Translations under genes and position numbers: made by a program
Shown here: positions 18,628 to 28,291 of the stretch, one piece after another
How the letters are laid out: every line of letters begins with the position of its first letter
Position numbering within the stretch: position 1 is the first letter of the stretch
Notes under the pieces: model-generated
Database searches by the model: none
What the model was told of the DNA's origin: nothing
What the model saw: only the letters and a program-made list of their open reading frames with translations
Origin: an uncultured bacterium
GTDB lineage: Bacteria; Hydrogenedentota; CAZGCA01; CBFDCQ01
Reading direction: 5' to 3'
Assembly: GCA_965603355.1 (NCBI GenBank)
Contig: CBFDCQ010000008.1
Location: 5,441-69,440, forward strand
DNA length: 64,000 nt

Positions 18628-19686
18628 TCAGGAGCGGTTGATTGTGCGGTCTTCGGTGACGATGATGTCGACCGGGAGGTCGTGTGGTTCTGCGGGGATC
18701 GAGTCGTAAATCTGGACTTCGTAGGCGAGGGCGATCCTTTTTCCGCGAAATGCCGCGAGGAACCTGTCGTAGTACCCGCCGCCGTACCCTATTCTGTGGC
18801 ACGCCGTGTCGAAAGCGATTCCAGGCACAATGGCGACGTCGGTTTCAGCAGGTTGGACCGGCCTTAGACACTGTTCTCTCGGCTCGAGTATGTCGAAGGT
18901 GGACGGTTCGAGCTCGTCAAGGCTCTTGAGTTCCGACCAGACCATCTCACGTGTTGACGGGACGGCCACGGGCACGGCCACCGTTTTGTTCTTTTCGAGC
19001 GCGCCGCGGATCAGAGGCATCGTATCAACCTCGTTGTCTTTCGAAGACACGTATGTCAGTATGGTGCGGGCAGACTCGAACTCGGAGAGCGATCTCAGTC
19101 GTTGGAGTATCGCATCGCTTTTGTGTGCAACATGTTCCGGCGTTAACGCGCGTCGTGTCGCGAGGGCGCTGGCCCGTATTGCGCGCTTGAGCTCTTTGAC
19201 CGTGATATGCGCCCGGATGGTATCGCCCGGTTTGATCTCGCCGCCGGACAGCACCATGCCGAATATACCCTCGCGCGGCATGATGCAGTCGCCAACGAGC
19301 TTGCGTATCTCGCATGCGGCATGACACGCCTTGCCGATTTGCGATACCTGGAGCTCCACGGTGTTGATGGTAAGCCGCGTTCCGACGGGCAGTGTATACA
19401 GGCCTATGCCGCGCGTGGTGATGTTCTCGGCGAAGTCGCCGGGGGAAAGCTCAAAACCTGATGCGCGCATCTTGTCTATGCTCTCCTCCGCGAGCAGGCT
19501 GACTTGACGGTGCGCCATACCGGCGTGCGCGTCACCTTCAATACCGTGTTCCTGCAGGAGGGTGATGACCTCCACGGGATGCTTCCTGACACCTTTCTCG
19601 CTACTCACGCAGACCGCAACCACGGTCCCGCACAGATCAAGATTATCCCGCATATCACTTGCTTGAGTATGCATATCGTCCTTCAT
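18628..19686 (-). CDS. fusion protein: N-terminal MOSC domain (YiiM-like) plus C-terminal 5-formyltetrahydrofolate cyclo-ligase
   Basis: N-terminal CGTVVAVCVSSEKG..GIEGDAHAG..GDFAENITTRGI..LQVSQIGKAC is MOSC-like. The C-terminus ILTYVSSKDNEVDT..AVPV..GIAFDTACHRIGYGGGYYDRFL has 5-FCL motifs. Confidence 0.7.
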   Translation of the reverse strand: MKDDMHTQASDMRDNLDLCGTVVAVCVSSEKGVRKHPVEVITLLQEHGIEGDAHAGMAHRQVSLLAEESIDKMRASGFELSPGDFAENITTRGIGLYTLPVGTRLTINTVELQVSQIGKACHAACEIRKLVGDCIMPREGIFGMVLSGGEIKPGDTIRAHITVKELKRAIRASALATRRALTPEHVAHKSDAILQRLRSLSEFESARTILTYVSSKDNEVDTMPLIRGALEKNKTVAVPVAVPSTREMVWSELKSLDELEPSTFDILEPREQCLRPVQPAETDVAIVPGIAFDTACHRIGYGGGYYDRFLAAFRGKRIALAYEVQIYDSIPAEPHDLPVDIIVTEDRTINRS

Positions 19687-19854: not shown

Positions 19855-20595
19855 TCACACGTTCGGTCCGCAGTTGGGCCCTCGCCGCCGTCGTCGTCGC
19901 GGGAACCGCTCGGGCGTATTATTCTGCGCGACGGTATTGTTTGCATCCGGCACTCTCTGGACATGCACGCAGCGCGCTATTAGCTCGTCCATAGCGAGTT
20001 GGGTCTCCCCGACGCGCACCACGAGCGACGGTTGGCGCTGGTGCATTGTGACGACGGCTCCCGGGACGAGACCGAAGGAGGCGATCTTGTCGAGCCGGTC
20101 GTGTTTCTTTGTCTCGACGTACATCACGCGCCCTTTCGCTCCCGGAGGAAGCTTGTCGAGGGTTAGCACTATAGGTTGCAGCTCACTCCTGTCACGTTTA
20201 CAGCATTCGCCGGGGGGGATCGGCATACCGTGCGGGCATGTGGTGGGGTGGCCGAGCAGAGTACAGATACTCTCGGTGACTTCCGGGCTAAGAATATGCT
20301 CGAACTCGCACGCCTGAGCCTCGAGCACTTCGTCTCTAACCGAGAGCACGTCGGCGAGCAGCCGTTCGGCCAGCCTGTGGCAGCGAAGGAGCTCCCCCGC
20401 CTTCTGTTCCCCTTCGCCCGTGAACGCGACTGAGCCTTCGGCAATCGTTACGAGTCCTGCGCGTTCCATCTCTCGGAGGGTAGCCTCGAGTTCTTGTCCG
20501 CTTTCCTTGGACAGTGACTCGATTGTCACTTCATCGCCGCGTTCCCTCTGCATCCAGGCAAGTTCCAGGATTTCGTCGAAATTGGTTGCATCCAT
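19855..20595 (-). CDS. DtxR/MntR-family metal-dependent transcriptional regulator with C-terminal FeoA (SH3-like) domain
   Basis: ..RCHRLAERLL..EACEFEHILS..LGHPTTCPHGMPIP metal-binding region, then an FeoA-like GAKGRVMYV..GLVPGAVVTM tail. Start chosen at MDATNFDEIL (20595) to avoid a 68-bp overlap with the upstream gene. Confidence 0.65.
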   Translation of the reverse strand: MDATNFDEILELAWMQRERGDEVTIESLSKESGQELEATLREMERAGLVTIAEGSVAFTGEGEQKAGELLRCHRLAERLLADVLSVRDEVLEAQACEFEHILSPEVTESICTLLGHPTTCPHGMPIPPGECCKRDRSELQPIVLTLDKLPPGAKGRVMYVETKKHDRLDKIASFGLVPGAVVTMHQRQPSLVVRVGETQLAMDELIARCVHVQRVPDANNTVAQNNTPERFPRRRRRRGPNCGPNV

Positions 20596-20602
20596 GGTGA
20601 TC

Positions 20603-21973
20603 TCAGTTGCTCTCGTGAGCGATCTTCGGGTAATAGGTGCTGTAGCTAAATCGCGGACTGTTCTGCTCATCGTGACACCGCTTGCAGTCCGCGCGACTGG
20701 TTCTTCCGTAACGGGTTGTCGGGGTGTCCGTGTGGTTGCTTCCGACGCCGTGACACATCTCGCATCCCACGTTGGCCAACTCGGGCGTCTCGCTCAAGCT
20801 CTCAAAACCGTCGAAGTAACGGTAGCCTGTCACGTGACAGCGCAGACAGGCGGGATCGGATTGTCTGCCCTCGTTCTTGAGCGGCGCGAACGATTTCGCA
20901 TGGCGGCTTTCCGACCAGATAGTGAACGCTTCGGCATGGCATCCGGCACACCAATCGCTGCCGACGTAATAGCCTCCCCTTTCGGGTGTCTTGATCGAGC
21001 GTTCCTTCAGAAAACCCTGGTTGACCATCATTGCCGTCGAACAGTCGAGTATCTGTCCCACGACCGGCGAATCGGAGACCTGATCCGACAGGATTAGAGT
21101 CTCATATTTGTGTGTAAATCTTCCCGGCCCGCCAAGAGCGATGTCGGTTCTGGCGAGGTACTGTCCGCCTTTGCCTGAATTCACCACTATCAGCCTATCG
21201 GTTGACCGTTCATGTTCTACAGGGCGCTCGGCCTCGTGAGAGTATACGGCCAGGTCTATCTCGGGAAACGCCTTGGTCAACGAGAGGACTTCCTTGGGGT
21301 CGGCGTGCGCGAGAAGAATCCGCAGGTCCGCTTTGCCCTTGAGTCTCGCGAGAGCGTTTCTCAGAGCTCGTTTGGCGTCCAGGACTTTCACGTCGAGACC
21401 TTCGAGTTTGGCGAGATAGTCGCTGACCTGGTTTGAGAGCACGCCTATCACTGCTATGCGTGTGTTCTTGCCGCCAACGATCCGGTCAACGACGGTGTAT
21501 GCAGGAAAGAACGGTTGCCCGTCGGGTCCCGCAAGGTTGGCCGATATGAACGGGAACTTGGCTCGTTCAGCCATATTGACGAGGAAACGAGGGCCGAATG
21601 TGACATCAATCTCGCCGATGTTGAACGCGTCGTACGCCATTTCGTTCAGTGCGAGAATTGCGGTTTGGAACCGCAGCTCGTGCTCCGCGCCGGCGCCCTG
21701 GGTCAGATCGCCGTTCTCGAGCAGCAGGATGGGGTTCCCCTCAAACCCAATTGCCCTGACGAGCGTGTGTCTTCTGGCAAGCCCGCCACCGCACGTGGGG
21801 CAATCGGCCGGTTCCATCTCACCGGTGAGCTGGCCGCTGCAAATGACGGTCAGCTGTGCTGAAGGTTCGGCGGGATCCGTTTGCCCTATAGCGACCGCGC
21901 AAAGTAAAGCAGTAACGAGCCCTATACTTACGCCCAGAGCCGCGTGTTCGTACAGTTTCCTTCGACTCATCAT
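20603..21973 (-). CDS. secreted tetraheme c-type cytochrome with a degenerate 5'-nucleotidase/metallophosphoesterase-like N-terminal domain
   Basis: Four CXXCH motifs in the C-terminal third (CAGCH, CLRCH, CEMCH, CKRCH). Signal peptide. The N-domain resembles the UshA-type fold (..RIAVIGVLSN..ILLAHADPKE..) but lacks the canonical metal-ligand His/Asp motifs. Confidence 0.65.
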   Translation of the reverse strand: MMSRRKLYEHAALGVSIGLVTALLCAVAIGQTDPAEPSAQLTVICSGQLTGEMEPADCPTCGGGLARRHTLVRAIGFEGNPILLLENGDLTQGAGAEHELRFQTAILALNEMAYDAFNIGEIDVTFGPRFLVNMAERAKFPFISANLAGPDGQPFFPAYTVVDRIVGGKNTRIAVIGVLSNQVSDYLAKLEGLDVKVLDAKRALRNALARLKGKADLRILLAHADPKEVLSLTKAFPEIDLAVYSHEAERPVEHERSTDRLIVVNSGKGGQYLARTDIALGGPGRFTHKYETLILSDQVSDSPVVGQILDCSTAMMVNQGFLKERSIKTPERGGYYVGSDWCAGCHAEAFTIWSESRHAKSFAPLKNEGRQSDPACLRCHVTGYRYFDGFESLSETPELANVGCEMCHGVGSNHTDTPTTRYGRTSRADCKRCHDEQNSPRFSYSTYYPKIAHESN

Positions 21974-23082
21974 TGTGTGTCGTCTTCCTCGAGGACCACG
22001 CCGGCGACCGGGACAACAATCTGCTCCGGACTGACCCGCGTGAGCTTCAGGGTTACTGAACCGATCCTTTCGCCGGGTTCCGCTCCCGGCTGGAGCGTGC
22101 CGACGATTCTATGCCTCTGCTGCAAGCCCAACGTTGTTCTTCTCCACGTTACACCTTCAATGTCGGACTCTATCCCGGCGAGCCCGAATGGTGCGTCGCC
22201 GTACACATCTATCGCGCCTAGACTTTCGGCCGGCGACCGCGCCGCAAAGAACAGGAGTTCAGGTGTGGTGTACAATCCACCTGTCACAAACGCCCTGACC
22301 GGCACGGCCACGGTTGGCAGACGCTTGATGTTAGTGTGCACAAGGACATTCGTGTTAAGAACACCGCCAGCCGCCTCCGGTTTGAGGCGCACCTCGATCT
22401 CGTACTGAGCGGCGCCGGGAACGGATTCATCTCCGGCGGACGGTGCGGCCTCTGAATAGGAGGCGGCGACACTGTCTGAAGAGCTTTCGACACCGGTTAT
22501 CTCGACTGGTTCACGCCACGTCTGCTTCAAGCTAACGATCTGGCTGGCACCCTTGCCTTTCTCAATGGTGCCGAAATCTATCGTCTCCGGCTCTATCACG
22601 AACTCAGGTGTGATATCGGCCGACACAAGCAGAGTGGTGAGGAGTTTTTCCGGGTCGTTCGAGTAGATATACGCTCCAATTCTCGGCGATTTTCCGTGGA
22701 AATGCTGGGGATCGAGCGTCGCGATCAGGTCCGCGGCGGCTTCCGGCTCAATTTCCAAAGTGGACAGTTCCAGGCTAAGACAGCCGCACGACGTTTTGAA
22801 CCCTTCAATGTTCAGCGTGGCCTCGCCGGTATTCTTTATCGAGAAAGTGTGATCGAGCACTTGGTCCGGCTCAATGGCGCCGAAATCGTGCCCCTCCTCC
22901 GAGACCTCTATACGCGGTTGAGGCCCTGCCGGCTTCGGTTGCACGCCGGTGGTTTGCCTAGGAGGTACAAATACGATTCCATCCTGCACCGGAGGTTTAG
23001 CCACGCGGTAGGCGTAACCCAGCAGGACCACAAGTCCGAGCAGGACAATCGCCACTATGATTTCGTTGCTGCGAATCTTCAT
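21970..23082 (-). CDS. DUF1573 domain membrane-anchored protein
   Basis: N-terminal TM. HDFGAIEPDQVLDHTFSIKNTGEATLNIEGFKTSCGC matches the DUF1573 signature (H.FG...G......F.N.G...L.I.....CGC). 370 aa. Confidence 0.6.
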   Translation of the reverse strand: MKIRSNEIIVAIVLLGLVVLLGYAYRVAKPPVQDGIVFVPPRQTTGVQPKPAGPQPRIEVSEEGHDFGAIEPDQVLDHTFSIKNTGEATLNIEGFKTSCGCLSLELSTLEIEPEAAADLIATLDPQHFHGKSPRIGAYIYSNDPEKLLTTLLVSADITPEFVIEPETIDFGTIEKGKGASQIVSLKQTWREPVEITGVESSSDSVAASYSEAAPSAGDESVPGAAQYEIEVRLKPEAAGGVLNTNVLVHTNIKRLPTVAVPVRAFVTGGLYTTPELLFFAARSPAESLGAIDVYGDAPFGLAGIESDIEGVTWRRTTLGLQQRHRIVGTLQPGAEPGERIGSVTLKLTRVSPEQIVVPVAGVVLEEDDTQ

Positions 23083-23254: not shown

Positions 23255-24568
23255 CTATGGTGTCGCGGACAGTACCGGGCTGAACGGTGGGGCCGTGCTC
23301 CAAAGCAGCCCATACAGGACTGTGATGAGGAGTGCGACGAGAATGCCTACATAGAGCCTCTTGACAACGGATTCTTGTCGGATACTCCCTCCGAGTAGAG
23401 TGATGATGCAAAAGATAATACTCAGAAGGAAGGCGGTCTTGATGTAGAAGGCTCCCATGCGCAGAGCGACTACCGCTGCAAGTCCTGCAAAGGGAATTGC
23501 TGCGCCACCTGTTGCGGCAACCTTGTTGAAGATGCGCGTTCTTGCGCGCCTGCGCGCCACGTCCCTCGCGCTCTTGCCGGTGGTGATGTCAGTTCCGCAC
23601 GCGACACAGATTCTGTCACCGGGGCTGATTTCAGCGCGACATCGAGGGCACTGTTTTGCGCCGGCCGGTGTCGCGGGAGCCTCGATGCGCGTTTCCTGCA
23701 CCATCGTAGGTTTTACGGCGCGCAGCTTTTCCCTGGATGCGGCCGCGCGAATCACGGTGGGCCGGATCATCGATAGAGCGGTGGCCGCTTGTTCCGCGCT
23801 CTTGTACCTATCTTTTGGATCTTTTGTAAGCATCCTCATCACAACCCGCGCCAACCCGTCCGGCACCGCCCTGTTCAGTTCCTTAATGTCTGTCGGCCCT
23901 TCGTACTGGTGTTTCTGTATAATCTCGAGCGCTGTTGCGCCTTCGAATGGAACGTTGCCCGCGAGCAATTCGTAGATGACTACTCCGAGGGAATAGACGT
24001 CTGAGGATTTGCCGACTGGCGTCCCTTTGCTCTGTTCGGGCGACATGTACTCGGGAGTGCCGACGATATCGCCGGTGCGCGTCATGCGAGTGGCATAAGT
24101 GAGCCTGGCCACGCCGAAGTCGGTCAGCTTCGGTTTGCCGTCCGTGCCGACTAGGATGTTGCCCGGCTTGATATCGCGGTGTATGATCCCGGCTTTGTGC
24201 GCGTGCGCGAGAGCGGCCGCTACACTTATGGCGAGGTCGAGCGTGCGCCCGACATCGAACCGCTCACCCTCGGCCAGCAGATCGTCCAGACTGCTGCCCT
24301 CGACAAAGTCCATCGCGTAGTAGTGAGTGCCTTGATCTTCGCCCACGGCGTGGATCTTGACTATGTTCGGATGGTCGAGCTTGGCGAGAGCTTCCGTCTC
24401 TCTCTTAAACCTCTTGACGAACACCGGGTCTATGGTAAACTCGCTCGAGAGGACTTTCAGGGCTACCGTGTGGCCGGCGTCGAGTTCAGTAGCACGGTAC
24501 ACGACACCCATTCCGCCGCGTCCCAGCTCGCCCTCGATCTTGTAGTTGCCCAACGTGTCACTGTTCAT
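23255..24568 (-). CDS. Hanks-type serine/threonine protein kinase with zinc-ribbon and C-terminal TM region
   Basis: GELGRGGMGVVYRA glycine loop, VALK, HRDIKPGNIL catalytic loop, DFGVA, GTPEYMSPEQ. CPRCRAEISPGDRICVACG zinc ribbon. Hydrophobic C-terminus. Confidence 0.85.
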   Translation of the reverse strand: MNSDTLGNYKIEGELGRGGMGVVYRATELDAGHTVALKVLSSEFTIDPVFVKRFKRETEALAKLDHPNIVKIHAVGEDQGTHYYAMDFVEGSSLDDLLAEGERFDVGRTLDLAISVAAALAHAHKAGIIHRDIKPGNILVGTDGKPKLTDFGVARLTYATRMTRTGDIVGTPEYMSPEQSKGTPVGKSSDVYSLGVVIYELLAGNVPFEGATALEIIQKHQYEGPTDIKELNRAVPDGLARVVMRMLTKDPKDRYKSAEQAATALSMIRPTVIRAAASREKLRAVKPTMVQETRIEAPATPAGAKQCPRCRAEISPGDRICVACGTDITTGKSARDVARRRARTRIFNKVAATGGAAIPFAGLAAVVALRMGAFYIKTAFLLSIIFCIITLLGGSIRQESVVKRLYVGILVALLITVLYGLLWSTAPPFSPVLSATP

Positions 24569-25895
24569 CGGGCACCGCCTGTTCGCCGGTCAAGTCCGAT
24601 CTGTTATTGCTCATTGTCTCGAGGTATTCTGCCGCCGCCGCGGCCGTCTCGGTGTCCGGTCCGAGTTCTATCGTGCGCCTGAACTCTCGCTCGGCGCTGC
24701 CGAGGTCGCCCAAACGGTAGAATCTCTCACCGAGTGAGAAGTGTTCCATCTGCCATTCCTCGTACGGGATTGCGCCTTCGCCGGAACGTCTGGCGCTTTG
24801 CAGGCTCCATACCGCGCCTCCTGCGACAATGGCGACCGCTACGGCAATTACCGCTGCACGTCTGGCGCCGCGTGGCGCACGCTCGGTCGCAGACGTGGCA
24901 CGGTCTCCGGTCGACACATTTGTACCGCATTGGATGCAGACGACTTGTCCGCTCTCAAGTTCGGCGTTGCACACGCTGCACAGCTCAACGTCAAGCTGAG
25001 CCCGCCGCGCCTCAATCCGTTGGATGACCTCGGCAACGTTCAGGGGTCGCTGTTCGGGCTCCTTCTCGATCATGTCCAGAACCAGCTTGTTCAGCCACTC
25101 GGGGACGGAGCTGTTCCATTCGCGGGGCGCTTCCGGTATAGAGTACCGGTGGCTTCTCAGCACTGCCGGAGGTGAGTCACTCTTGAACGGCACTCGCCCG
25201 GTGACCATTTCATACAGGAGTATTCCGAGCGAGTAGATATCGGTGCGGTGGTCGACCTCCTTGGCGGCGGCCTGTTCGGGCGACATGTACTCCACAGTGC
25301 CGATAACTTGACGTGTGGTCGTGACACCCTTCACGTCGCTGAGCTTGGCAATGCCAAAATCCACTATTTTCGCGCGGCCGTTCTCGTCGAAGATGACGTT
25401 AGCGGGCTTTATGTCGCGGTGGATTATCCCGCCGGCGTGCGCGTGTCCCAGGGCGGAGCAGACCGATGTGGCGATTTCCAGAGCTTCCACCAAGCGGAGC
25501 GCGCCGTGCTCCTTGATCTTATCAGCGAGGCTGCCGCCGGAAAGATACTCCATCACATAGAAATGCCGACCGGTCTCCTCGCCGACTTCGAGTATTTTGA
25601 CTATGTTGGAGTGGTTCAGGTTCCTGAGCACTTCAATCTCTGTGCGAAATCGCGCGAGACGGGACGGGCTGTCACGCAGGCCGGTCGGCAAAAGCTTCAG
25701 CGCACCATGCAAACCGTCGGGATCAACTACAAGGTAGACGGTGCCGCTGGCTCCGCGACCGAGTTCGCGAACGGTTTCGTATATGCCTATCTTCACAGGG
25801 ATCAGGTCTGCCTCAGGCGTTCCAGACACGCTCACGTGCGGCCGGTTTGGCCTGCCTGCCGCCCGTTTCTGACAGCAGCGCGAGAGTTGATACAC
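24558..25895 (-). CDS. Hanks-type serine/threonine protein kinase (second copy) with zinc-ribbon, TM and TPR-like C-terminus
   Basis: GRGASGTVYLV, HRDIKPANVIF, DFGIAK, GTVEYMSPEQ. CSVCNAELESGQVVCIQCG zinc ribbon. TM segment AAVIAVAVAIVAGGAVW. Confidence 0.85.
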   Translation of the reverse strand: MYQLSRCCQKRAAGRPNRPHVSVSGTPEADLIPVKIGIYETVRELGRGASGTVYLVVDPDGLHGALKLLPTGLRDSPSRLARFRTEIEVLRNLNHSNIVKILEVGEETGRHFYVMEYLSGGSLADKIKEHGALRLVEALEIATSVCSALGHAHAGGIIHRDIKPANVIFDENGRAKIVDFGIAKLSDVKGVTTTRQVIGTVEYMSPEQAAAKEVDHRTDIYSLGILLYEMVTGRVPFKSDSPPAVLRSHRYSIPEAPREWNSSVPEWLNKLVLDMIEKEPEQRPLNVAEVIQRIEARRAQLDVELCSVCNAELESGQVVCIQCGTNVSTGDRATSATERAPRGARRAAVIAVAVAIVAGGAVWSLQSARRSGEGAIPYEEWQMEHFSLGERFYRLGDLGSAEREFRRTIELGPDTETAAAAAEYLETMSNNRSDLTGEQAVPDEQ

Positions 25896-26396
25896 CTACA
25901 GTCCAAGTTCCTCTCCAACGATTGAAGCTATGAAACGTTCAATGGATACCGGGAAGAACCGCACATCAGGCGAGTGCACAACTCCGGTCTCGATATCCTC
26001 TTTCCGCTCAAGCTCGTCAAGCACGGCATCTATGAGCTGGTCGGAGTTCATCTGCATCTCTCTCACTTTAAAATATTCCGACTCGAAGTTCACCGGCTTG
26101 CCTCCGAGCGCCAGAAAGCCGAACACGCGACCCACGAGCGCAGGTTCGATGTTCTCTTGGCCGAACAGCTCCTCGTACTTGAGCCCGTGGTAGTCCGGGT
26201 GCCAGACGAGACGCGGCGAGACGTTTATCTGTCCGCGAATCTCGAGGCTTCTATCGTGCCGTTCGCGCGATTCGCCCAGCAGAATGTACGGCAGTCGGTG
26301 ATATCCCACCACTATTCCGTGAGTAGGCTTCTTGATGACGTGCGTTTCTCGGAAAACGTGTTGCAGGTAAGCGAAATCTTCGTGATCCTCTGTCAC
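25896..26396 (-). CDS. hypothetical protein, 166 aa, in operon with the two kinases and the cyclase
   Basis: ORF directly abuts the kinase start (25895/25896). No domain recognised. Confidence 0.4.
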   Translation of the reverse strand: MTEDHEDFAYLQHVFRETHVIKKPTHGIVVGYHRLPYILLGESRERHDRSLEIRGQINVSPRLVWHPDYHGLKYEELFGQENIEPALVGRVFGFLALGGKPVNFESEYFKVREMQMNSDQLIDAVLDELERKEDIETGVVHSPDVRFFPVSIERFIASIVGEELGL

Positions 26397-26443
26397 GGTA
26401 ACGTCATCTCCTTAACAGCACGTGTCGGAATTCCATCTCGGAT

Positions 26444-28069
26444 CTACTTCACCCCGAGCACTTCGTGGACGGAGACCGGTTTTTTCTTTCCCTTAAGGAG
26501 GATCGGGCCGAGCGGCCTTCCGGAAACCTTTTCTCCGAGCTTGTGGAACGTCTCGCCGCAAGCGAGTATCTGCCCCGGTTCAGCCTTTGAACAGAGTCGC
26601 CGCGCTACGTTGACTATATCGCCGATAGCCGTAAACTCCATGCGCCTCGGCGAGCCGATATATCCGGCTATCGCAGTGCCTGTGGCGACGCCTATTCCAA
26701 CATCGAACGTGGGTCGTCCGCTCCTGCTCCATCTTTCGCGCATAGGGCACAACACGTGCTGCATCTCCAGCGCGACCTTCACTGCACGGACGGCGTGGTC
26801 GTGCGCCTGGACCGGGGCGCCGAAAACGGCCATGATCTCGTCGCCGACATACTTGTCCAGGGTCCCATCGTGCAGGAAGATTACCTCCGCCATTTCTGTG
26901 AAGTACTCATTCAACATCGAGACAACGTCGGTGGGCGACATCCTCTCAGCCAACCCGGTGAACCCGCGAATATCGCTGAACAAGGCGGCTATCTCCTGTT
27001 TTGTGCCGCCCAGTTCGATGCTTCCTTCCTTATTTATTACCTCATCCACTACACGAGGCGACAGGAACCGTTCCAGGTTGTTGCGTCGCCGCTCTTCCTC
27101 TATCATCCTTTCGGTCAACCGGACGTTCTCGATAGCTATCGCGGACTGGCTGGCGACTGCCTCGAACAGCTCGAGGTCCTCGGGAGCAAACTTGTGGTTT
27201 GGATCGCGACTGTCGACGTAGATGCTGCCGAGTATTCTGTCCTCGACTTTCAGCGGCACGCTCATTGCCGATCTGATCTGGCTCAGGATGACGCTTTGTC
27301 TCGAACTGAATCTGTCATCGTGCAGCGCATCTTCGGCGATCACGAGTTCGCCATCTATCGCGGAACGGCTTGCTATCCCCATGCTGGGCGAGCTGGTCGC
27401 CGCGTCCCTACCCATCTTGCGCGCGACCTCGGTGCTCAAGCTGCCGTCATCTTCGTTGACAAGGACTATGAACCCGCGGTCCGCGCCGGTCACCTTGATG
27501 GCGCTGTCGAGAATTGCCTCGAGCCGTTTCTTGAGATCAAGTTCGGAAACCGCGAGGCGTGACGCTTCGTACAGGGCCTCAAGACGACGGTACGCTTTGC
27601 CGATCGCCATGATGTTGGTCGGGTCCGCGAGCTCCTCGATAGAGCTGTCCTGGACGTCCGGTCTTCTCACCATCATGGTCAGTCGCTCGCCGACGGAACT
27701 CATCTGCTGCTTTATGCGGGCGACGTCTGCCGAAGCGTTCGCAGCGGTCGTAGCGGTGCCTGCAGCTTGTTGCCAAGGCCCGTCTACGAGGGTGAACACC
27801 AGGTCATAGTGACCTATGGTGATTTTGTCGCCTTCGGCCAACTCCTTTCTCTCGACAGGTTTCCCGTTGACCAGCGTACCGTTAGTGCTGCCCAGATCTA
27901 TCAGCACGTGCTTGCGGTTTTCGAGCCGCAACTCAGCATGCTTCGTCGAGACAAATTCATCGCTCAGCACCAGCCCGCTGTCCTCTGCGCGACCTATAGT
28001 GAGAACAGTTTGCCGGAGAGCCACGCGACGACGTTTCCGGTTGCGGTAGGATACAAGCAATTGTGCCAT
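26444..28069 (-). CDS. FHA domain - GAF domain - class III adenylate/guanylate cyclase
   Basis: FHA: TIGRAEDSGLVLSDEFVSTKHAEL..LGSTNGTLVNG. GAF in the middle. Cyclase: FSDIRGFTGLAERM..LNEYFTEM..GTLDKYVGDEIMAVFGAP..RVGIGVATG. Confidence 0.8.
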   Translation of the reverse strand: MAQLLVSYRNRKRRRVALRQTVLTIGRAEDSGLVLSDEFVSTKHAELRLENRKHVLIDLGSTNGTLVNGKPVERKELAEGDKITIGHYDLVFTLVDGPWQQAAGTATTAANASADVARIKQQMSSVGERLTMMVRRPDVQDSSIEELADPTNIMAIGKAYRRLEALYEASRLAVSELDLKKRLEAILDSAIKVTGADRGFIVLVNEDDGSLSTEVARKMGRDAATSSPSMGIASRSAIDGELVIAEDALHDDRFSSRQSVILSQIRSAMSVPLKVEDRILGSIYVDSRDPNHKFAPEDLELFEAVASQSAIAIENVRLTERMIEEERRRNNLERFLSPRVVDEVINKEGSIELGGTKQEIAALFSDIRGFTGLAERMSPTDVVSMLNEYFTEMAEVIFLHDGTLDKYVGDEIMAVFGAPVQAHDHAVRAVKVALEMQHVLCPMRERWSRSGRPTFDVGIGVATGTAIAGYIGSPRRMEFTAIGDIVNVARRLCSKAEPGQILACGETFHKLGEKVSGRPLGPILLKGKKKPVSVHEVLGVK

Positions 28070-28291
28070 GCCGACAATCCCACGATCCGCGCTAACCTCA
28101 AACAGCTAGCCAAGATATACAACACCACAATAACAAGGATACCACCGCAACGGCACCAAGTCAAGCGGAAAAGGGTAGAGGGTAAGCGGCGGGCAGCGGA
28201 CGATAACGCCCTCTCGCGTGAGAGCCGACACTCCGGTCGGCTACCCCGAGTTCTCCGGGGGGCGAACATCACAAATGATGCAGTGGCGGGT

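Follow-up and report, generated by a model that had tools for sequence, protein, structure and literature searches.

A plausible Ser/Thr kinase and adenylate cyclase signalling cluster in an uncultured Hydrogenedentota lineage

We analysed a 64,000-nucleotide stretch of contig CBFDCQ010000008.1 (referred to as the window) from an uncultured bacterium of the Hydrogenedentota, with a focus on four genes in a row on the minus strand at 23255-28069. They encode a nucleotide cyclase with an FHA and a GAF domain, an uncharacterized protein of 166 amino acids (aa) and two Hanks-type Ser/Thr kinases (named kinase A and kinase B). Judged from the sequences, these genes plausibly form a chromosomal cluster for Ser/Thr phosphorylation and cyclic AMP (cAMP) signalling. 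The cyclase looks like an active class IIIb adenylate cyclase, most likely specific for ATP. One or both of the kinases may regulate its cAMP output through a phosphothreonine read by the FHA domain, a coupling that we consider possible, falling a little short of probable.

Layout of the gene cluster

The Pfam, NCBIfam and PADLOC models were scanned against the open reading frames (ORFs) of the window. An earlier note on this DNA had described four consecutive minus-strand ORFs in the order cyclase, 166-aa gene, kinase A and kinase B; the coordinates and the order hold, and the domain types were confirmed by Pfam. The features of the cluster are as follows.

28136..28164, minus strand: promoter-like -35/-10 pair (TTGACT, 17 nucleotides, TATCCT, with an upstream TG; 9 of 12 consensus matches)
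26444..28069, minus strand: cyclase, 541 aa, with the Pfam domains of a predicted soluble FHA-GAF-class IIIb adenylate cyclase
25896..26396, minus strand: 166-aa gene, of a family almost restricted to Hydrogenedentota
24558..25796 (longest ORF to 25895), minus strand: kinase A, Hanks Ser/Thr kinase with a putative zinc ribbon, one predicted transmembrane segment and a TPR-like extracytoplasmic tail
23255..24568, minus strand: kinase B, Hanks Ser/Thr kinase with a putative zinc ribbon and about three predicted transmembrane segments

The promoter-like pair sits in the 222-nucleotide gap 5' of the cyclase gene and is a consensus match only, which in itself does not speak for a function. A consensus scan of the minus strand revealed no terminator-like site inside the cluster. 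The spacer between the cyclase and the 166-aa gene is 47 nucleotides long, and that between the 166-aa gene and kinase A is 99 nucleotides when the start of kinase A is revised. We place this start most likely at GTG 25796, giving a protein of 412 aa, because the kinase A orthologues of the relatives L100 and L004 begin with ATG at the aligned position (the motif MK[IL]GKYE); the residue numbers given for kinase A below follow the long ORF. The corresponding gap in L100 is 100 nucleotides. Of the two junctions emphasized in the earlier note, the 11-nucleotide overlap of kinase A and kinase B (24558-24568) is real and is also present in L004, and the abutment at 25895/25896 is an artefact of the longest ORF. 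The note had also extended the operon into the downstream DUF1573, cytochrome and DtxR genes. A gap of 172 nucleotides separates kinase B from the DUF1573 gene and other genes follow kinase B in relatives, so these genes do not belong to the conserved cluster. No riboswitch or other RNA in the cluster was matched by Rfam, and the window contains no tRNA. The genes around the cluster are housekeeping genes (hom and aminotransferases), and the composition of the window is unremarkable.

Domains and active site of the FHA-GAF cyclase

The cyclase is composed of an FHA domain at residues 24-86 (7e-19; PF00498, 68.4 bits against a cut-off of 20.7), a GAF domain at 178-313 (2e-17; PF01590, 64.7 bits) and a Guanylate_cyc domain at 357-531 (1e-27; PF00211, 97.3 bits against a gathering cut-off of 21.9), and no hydrophobic segment was seen along its 541 residues. 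The closest solved relatives of the catalytic domain are Synechocystis Cya2 (2w01/6fht) and Pseudomonas aeruginosa CyaB (3r5g), which it matches at E values of 5e-36 and 2e-32, respectively. The closest known cyclases also include Anabaena CyaB1 and Synechocystis Slr1991.

An alignment of 35 orthologues with 43-85% identity was used to assess conservation. The metal-binding residues D366 and D410 and the transition-state residues N487 and R491 are invariant and align with those of Cya2 and CyaB, and the substrate-specifying K406 and T480 are invariant as well. The first substrate-specifying position holds a lysine in the window cyclase and in 6fht, an adenylate-cyclase-type variant of Cya2, versus a glutamate in wild-type Cya2 (2w01), and the class IIIb position holds a threonine, as in CyaB 3r5g. 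Class IIIb cyclases are those in which threonine replaces the aspartate of class IIIa, and the bacterial members tested respond to CO2/bicarbonate (PMC2613629). The retained Lys/Thr pair thus places the protein in class IIIb. On the question of cAMP versus cyclic GMP, which the earlier note had left to these substrate-defining residues, the pair is of the adenine type and suggests specificity for ATP. In a distant Hydrogenedentota genome (L010, 8001-10293), a beta-carbonic anhydrase gene (Pro_CA) lies 29 nucleotides downstream of the orthologous FHA-GAF cyclase gene on the same strand, a neighbour in keeping with the reported response of class IIIb cyclases to CO2/bicarbonate.

The regulatory part of the protein is similarly well preserved. 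The residues of the FHA pocket, G26, R27, S41, H44, S61, N63 and G64, are invariant in the 35 orthologues, and all but S61 make up the GR, SxxH and NG motifs as defined previously (PMC1262709). For the GAF domain, the HD-GYP protein 4mcw was the one solved GAF structure matched at E<=1e-3, and no match was found at this threshold to the solved GAF domains that bind cyclic nucleotides (CyaB1/CyaB2 and PDE2/5 type). The linker between the FHA and GAF domains carries the conserved motif IR.EM..VG..LT[LM]IG, in which T131 is nearly invariant; we regard T131 as a candidate phosphorylation site only. We found nothing specific in the literature on a characterized FHA-GAF cyclase or on cyclases of Hydrogenedentes.

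Two predicted membrane-anchored kinases with putative zinc ribbons

Both kinases show strong Pkinase matches (kinase A, 3e-56, 191 bits; kinase B, 4e-55, 187 bits; cut-off 31.7) and share 37% identity. The catalytic motifs are GRGASG, ALK, HRDIKPAN, DFG and GTVEYMSPE in kinase A, and GRGGMG, ALK, HRDIKPGN, DFG and GTPEYMSPE in kinase B. The activation-loop threonines of both are conserved in the six orthologues compared. Past the kinase domain, each protein carries a CxxC-x10-CxxC motif, formed by CSVC and CIQC at 306 and 320 in kinase A and by CPRC and CVAC at 307 and 321 in kinase B, and the four cysteines are conserved in 6/6 orthologues of each kinase. Hydrophobic segments are found C-terminal to the ribbon, one in kinase A (347-365) and three in kinase B (about 350-374, 378-396 and 405-423). 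The conserved motif and the hydrophobic segments agree with the ribbons and membrane anchors described in the earlier note; the Pfam zinc-ribbon model (PF13240) scores 19.1 and 23.2, just under its curated cut-off of 25. Collectively, the two kinases appear to be paralogous, membrane-anchored and catalytically intact, with a predicted cytoplasmic four-cysteine ribbon between the kinase domain and the membrane.

Neither kinase has a Pfam match to PASTA repeats. The Stk1/PknB model NF033483 scores 288 and 330 bits, below its cut-off of 450, and covers the kinase domain only. The short TPR-like extracytoplasmic tail of kinase A is retained by each of the six orthologues. Full-length orthologues of kinase B were found only at >=62% identity (18 clusters), and lower matches are generic to the kinase domain. 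The C-terminal parts, namely the three-segment anchor of kinase B and the TPR-like tail of kinase A, have full-length relatives in the window's clade only.

Gene order in relatives

Most of the organism-named homologues are labelled Candidatus Hydrogenedentes or Hydrogenedentota, and a few metagenome-assembled genomes bear other taxonomic labels. Within the narrow clade that carries the kinase pair, the genes are arranged in three ways.

Subclade of the window and L100: hom, cyclase, 166-aa gene, kinase A, kinase B
Subclade of L004 and L096-L098: cyclase, 166-aa gene, DUF362, kinase A, kinase B
Subclade of L094, L095, L101 and one JGI contig: 166-aa gene, DUF362, kinase A, kinase B, without the cyclase

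The 166-aa gene, kinase A and kinase B, with or without DUF362, form a constant block in every clade member examined. Where present, the DUF362 gene separates the 166-aa gene from kinase A (L004, 10546-11484; L095, 10535-11473; L101, 7714-8652) and is not found there in the window or in L100. In the first two subclades the cyclase gene directly precedes the 166-aa gene and is read in the same direction. Since these subclades share 63-69% identity in their cyclase and kinase proteins, the common position points to an ancestral arrangement. The third subclade is monophyletic according to kinase B identity (71-88% inside, at most 67% to others). The simplest history, as read from these gene orders, would have all five genes (cyclase, 166-aa gene, DUF362, kinase A, kinase B) together in the ancestor, with the cyclase relocated once and DUF362 lost once thereafter. 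Conservation of the gene order, which the earlier note had suggested as a check, therefore holds for the cyclase, the 166-aa gene and the kinases only within one narrow clade, and there in two subclades out of three; the third subclade has no cyclase beside the kinase block, and the cyclase orthologues examined elsewhere have no kinase beside them.

The 166-aa protein family

The 166-aa protein has no match in Pfam, NCBIfam or PADLOC, and a profile search of the PDB sequences with the family gave a best E value of 0.44. Two AlphaFold models of the protein reached predicted local distance difference test (pLDDT) values of 66 and 52. A profile search of 1.84 billion representative proteins collected 137 clusters of the family, among which ten distant or atypically long matches are without an informative Pfam domain, and 129 matches were found among species-representative genomes. 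The family is thus small, and it is highly conserved: the 56 homologues aligned are 156-168 aa long with a mean column identity of 66%. T18 and T137 are invariant, each with a hydrophobic residue at +3.

Two cysteines occur in every one of the 31 non-clade sequences of the alignment, and the window's clade lacks both. The cysteine at about residue 40 is replaced by leucine (PY[IV]C[LIV]G outside the clade, PY[IV]LLG inside) and that at about residue 105 by phenylalanine (P[VIML][ED]C outside, PVNF inside). This replacement coincides, in the same genomes, with the switch of genomic neighbours to the kinase pair.

The neighbours of the gene were surveyed in 80 species genomes outside the window's clade, up to 10 kb on each side. 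Neither a class III cyclase domain nor a Hanks kinase was found near the gene in any of the 80. A protein of about 600 aa with a weak Glucodextran_N match is encoded on the same strand in 58 of them, usually downstream and in a few upstream, and an N-terminally anchored uncharacterized protein of about 470 aa accompanies the gene in 49. In L013-L092 and similar genomes (for example, L001, 10001-13844, and L002, 10001-12865), the three genes usually share a strand, and they look like a conserved three-gene unit across Hydrogenedentota. The genes upstream of the 166-aa gene in distant genomes are mutually unrelated, and no conserved upstream partner was found there. In summary, the product is a conserved cytosolic protein that is fixed next to the kinase pair in the window's clade and may be a substrate or an adaptor of the kinases.

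Possible coupling of the kinases to the cyclase

In the proposed mechanism, a membrane or periplasmic cue would lead the kinases to autophosphorylate on activation-loop or juxtamembrane threonines. The FHA domain of the cyclase would then dock on the phosphothreonine of a kinase, on one in its own linker (candidate T131) or on a phosphorylated partner, and this docking would change the dimer geometry or the location of the cyclase and so alter the cAMP output. The GAF domain would add a small-ligand input, and the class IIIb active site may add sensitivity to CO2/bicarbonate. The closest precedent is the kinase PknF, which phosphorylates threonines in an unstructured linker between the FHA domains of the neighbour-encoded Rv1747 (PMC8339232). 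The short spacers, the lack of an internal terminator-like site and the upstream promoter-like site are counted in favour of the coupling.

The earlier note had considered kinase regulation of the cyclase via the FHA domain very likely. The FHA domain, the kinase motifs and the catalytic residues are all intact, but gene order is weak evidence, and plausible is the word that fits. Several observations weigh against the coupling. The FHA-GAF cyclase occurs throughout the phylum, with hundreds of proteins of about 545 aa and the same domains at 44-51% identity in addition to a closer group at 65-100%, whereas the kinase pair does not extend beyond the narrow clade in which the 166-aa proteins of the >=73% group are found. 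It follows that, in most members of the phylum, the phosphothreonines recognized by the FHA domain must be the product of other kinases. The distant cyclase orthologues in L009, L010 and L012 (44-48% identity) have no kinase within 8-10 kb, and the L011 cyclase, of the window's clade at 68% identity, is located elsewhere without adjoining kinases; in none of these four does a 166-aa gene lie beside the cyclase. The third subclade keeps the kinase block without an adjoining cyclase. The residue at +3 of T131 is mostly glycine, which is untypical of the FHA preference, and neither a PP2C phosphatase nor an effector binding cyclic nucleotide monophosphates (cNMPs) is present among the 38 window ORFs scanned. 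We remain tentative about the coupling because the genes are not kept side by side outside the clade, one subclade has lost the adjacency, and the phylum-wide cyclase must normally rely on other kinases.

The main rival explanation is that the genes are neighbours by descent only, with a phylum-wide housekeeping cyclase that is served by other kinases and whose position has no regulatory meaning. We hold this to be a real though somewhat doubtful possibility. It accounts for the solitary cyclases of L009-L012, for the kinase block without a cyclase in L094, L095, L101 and the JGI contig, and for the confinement of the kinases, not of the cyclase, to one clade. It is less at ease with a gene order and orientation shared by two subclades whose cyclase and kinase proteins are about 63-69% identical, with the short spacers uninterrupted by a terminator-like site, and with the FHA domain as the obvious reader for the product of the adjoining kinases. 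Another reading, compatible with the coupling, takes the 166-aa protein and the two kinases (ancestrally with DUF362) as the real unit and the cyclase as optional, with the 166-aa protein as substrate, adaptor or regulator. The block is indeed present in the window, L100, L004, L096-L098, L094, L095, L101 and the JGI contig, and in this clade the protein has left its usual neighbours and exchanged its two conserved cysteines for leucine and phenylalanine. However, the family is never near a kinase in the 80 other species genomes, so that any link to kinases would be a recent recruitment; no structural or motif sign of a phospho-acceptor or a kinase-binding surface was seen, and synteny in one clade may simply reflect shared descent. 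We consider this reading unlikely. More specifically, the protein might have been recruited in the clade as the partner postulated in the earlier note, which the kinases would phosphorylate and the cyclase FHA domain would read. This idea draws on its place as the sole constant neighbour of the kinases, the loss of two cysteines, the departure from the ancestral neighbours and the retained T18 and T137, and we judge it quite improbable.

Two further readings were rejected. A role in anti-phage defence, as a Pycsar-like cyclase or as a PD-T4-6-like kinase system, is suggested by PADLOC matches of PycC to the cyclase (up to 3e-19) and of PD-T4-6 to the kinases (down to 8e-98), but the similarity is of the generic kind shared among class III cyclases and among Hanks kinases. 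Across the phylum the cyclase is vertically conserved with adenine-type Lys/Thr residues, no cNMP-activated effector adjoins it, and the surroundings are housekeeping genes of unremarkable composition, which makes a defence role scarcely credible. A catalytically dead pseudo-cyclase acting as a scaffold, which the earlier note would have expected had the metal and transition-state residues been absent, found no supporting point. All six catalytic and substrate residues (two metal Asp, the Lys/Thr pair and the transition-state Asn/Arg) are present and invariant in the 35 orthologues, and together with the E values of 5e-36 and 2e-32 to Cya2 and CyaB they render it very improbable.

Comparison with known systems

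Among the class IIIb cyclases, the solved domains of CyaB (3r5g) and Cya2 (2w01, 6fht) are matched by the catalytic domain of the window cyclase at E values of 2e-32 to 2e-39, with the same metal, Lys/Thr and transition-state residues. The window cyclase differs from these proteins by its N-terminal FHA domain and single GAF domain. Anabaena CyaB1 likewise has a GAF domain N-terminal to its catalytic domain. Wild-type Cya2, a guanylate cyclase, has a Glu/Gly pair in place of Lys/Thr. Pycsar PycC shares the class III cyclase fold, but the window cyclase has adenine-type residues, FHA and GAF domains and no adjoining effector. A patchy, mobile distribution is expected for Pycsar, in contrast to the vertical conservation of the window cyclase across the phylum.

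The two tandem kinases of the window recall pknA-pknB in the cluster fhaA-fhaB...pknA-pknB. In the PknF-Rv1747 pair of Mycobacterium tuberculosis, a Hanks kinase gene likewise adjoins the gene for an FHA-bearing effector, and Rv1747 is regulated by phosphorylation of threonines that lie in an unstructured linker adjoining its FHA domains (PMC8339232). The effector in these two systems is an ABC transporter or a cell-division protein, whereas here it would be a nucleotide cyclase; the window cluster also has no PP2C phosphatase, and its kinases lack PASTA domains. The layout predicted for kinases A and B is that of other bacterial Hanks kinases in which a zinc ribbon (PF13240/PF12773) links the kinase domain to the membrane anchor, and unrelated kinases with DZR ribbons, for example from Gemmatimonadota, are among the kinase B matches. 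The C-terminal parts of kinases A and B set them apart from these proteins.

All the domain types and the logic of kinases beside an FHA protein are textbook, and the cluster is an ordinary signalling cluster in an uncultured phylum. The sole unexplained element is the orphan 166-aa family and its clade-specific attachment to the kinase pair. The main value of the analysis lies in annotation: of an FHA-GAF adenylate cyclase found throughout the phylum, of a kinase pair specific to one clade and of a conserved orphan family with two genomic contexts. If the kinase-FHA-cyclase coupling is true, it would be a clear bacterial case of Ser/Thr phosphorylation feeding straight into cAMP synthesis and a first signalling handle on the uncultured phylum Hydrogenedentota, and the cyclase would integrate phosphothreonine, a GAF ligand and possibly CO2. 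If the 166-aa protein is an adaptor, it would stand for a new family of small proteins connecting Ser/Thr kinases with cAMP synthesis.

Neighbouring genes of the window

The gene at 20603-21973 (minus strand), called a tetraheme cytochrome in the earlier note, does contain four CxxCH motifs but is not a plain cytochrome. Its first 300 or so residues form a UshA-like metallophosphoesterase (245 bits for NF041198 'UshA-like (seleno)protein', whose cut-off is 275), fused to a four-haem c554-type domain; the protein also has an anchor at its N terminus and, at residue 58, a CPTC motif. The DUF1573 gene lies upstream of it with a 4-nucleotide overlap (20603-23082, minus strand, for the two genes), and its match is to the OS_HP2 '(seleno)protein' domain. 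Two families listed as selenoprotein families thus adjoin here, and no in-frame stop able to encode selenocysteine is present.

The DtxR/FeoA-type regulator (19855-20670, minus strand) shares 68 nucleotides with the upstream gene when read as the longest ORF. The true start is probably the internal ATG of Met26 at 20595, since this leaves a 7-nucleotide gap and keeps the N-terminal winged-helix region. Further along the minus strand, at 18628-19686, a single ORF combines a MOSC domain (53-158) with a 5-formyltetrahydrofolate cyclo-ligase (167-345).

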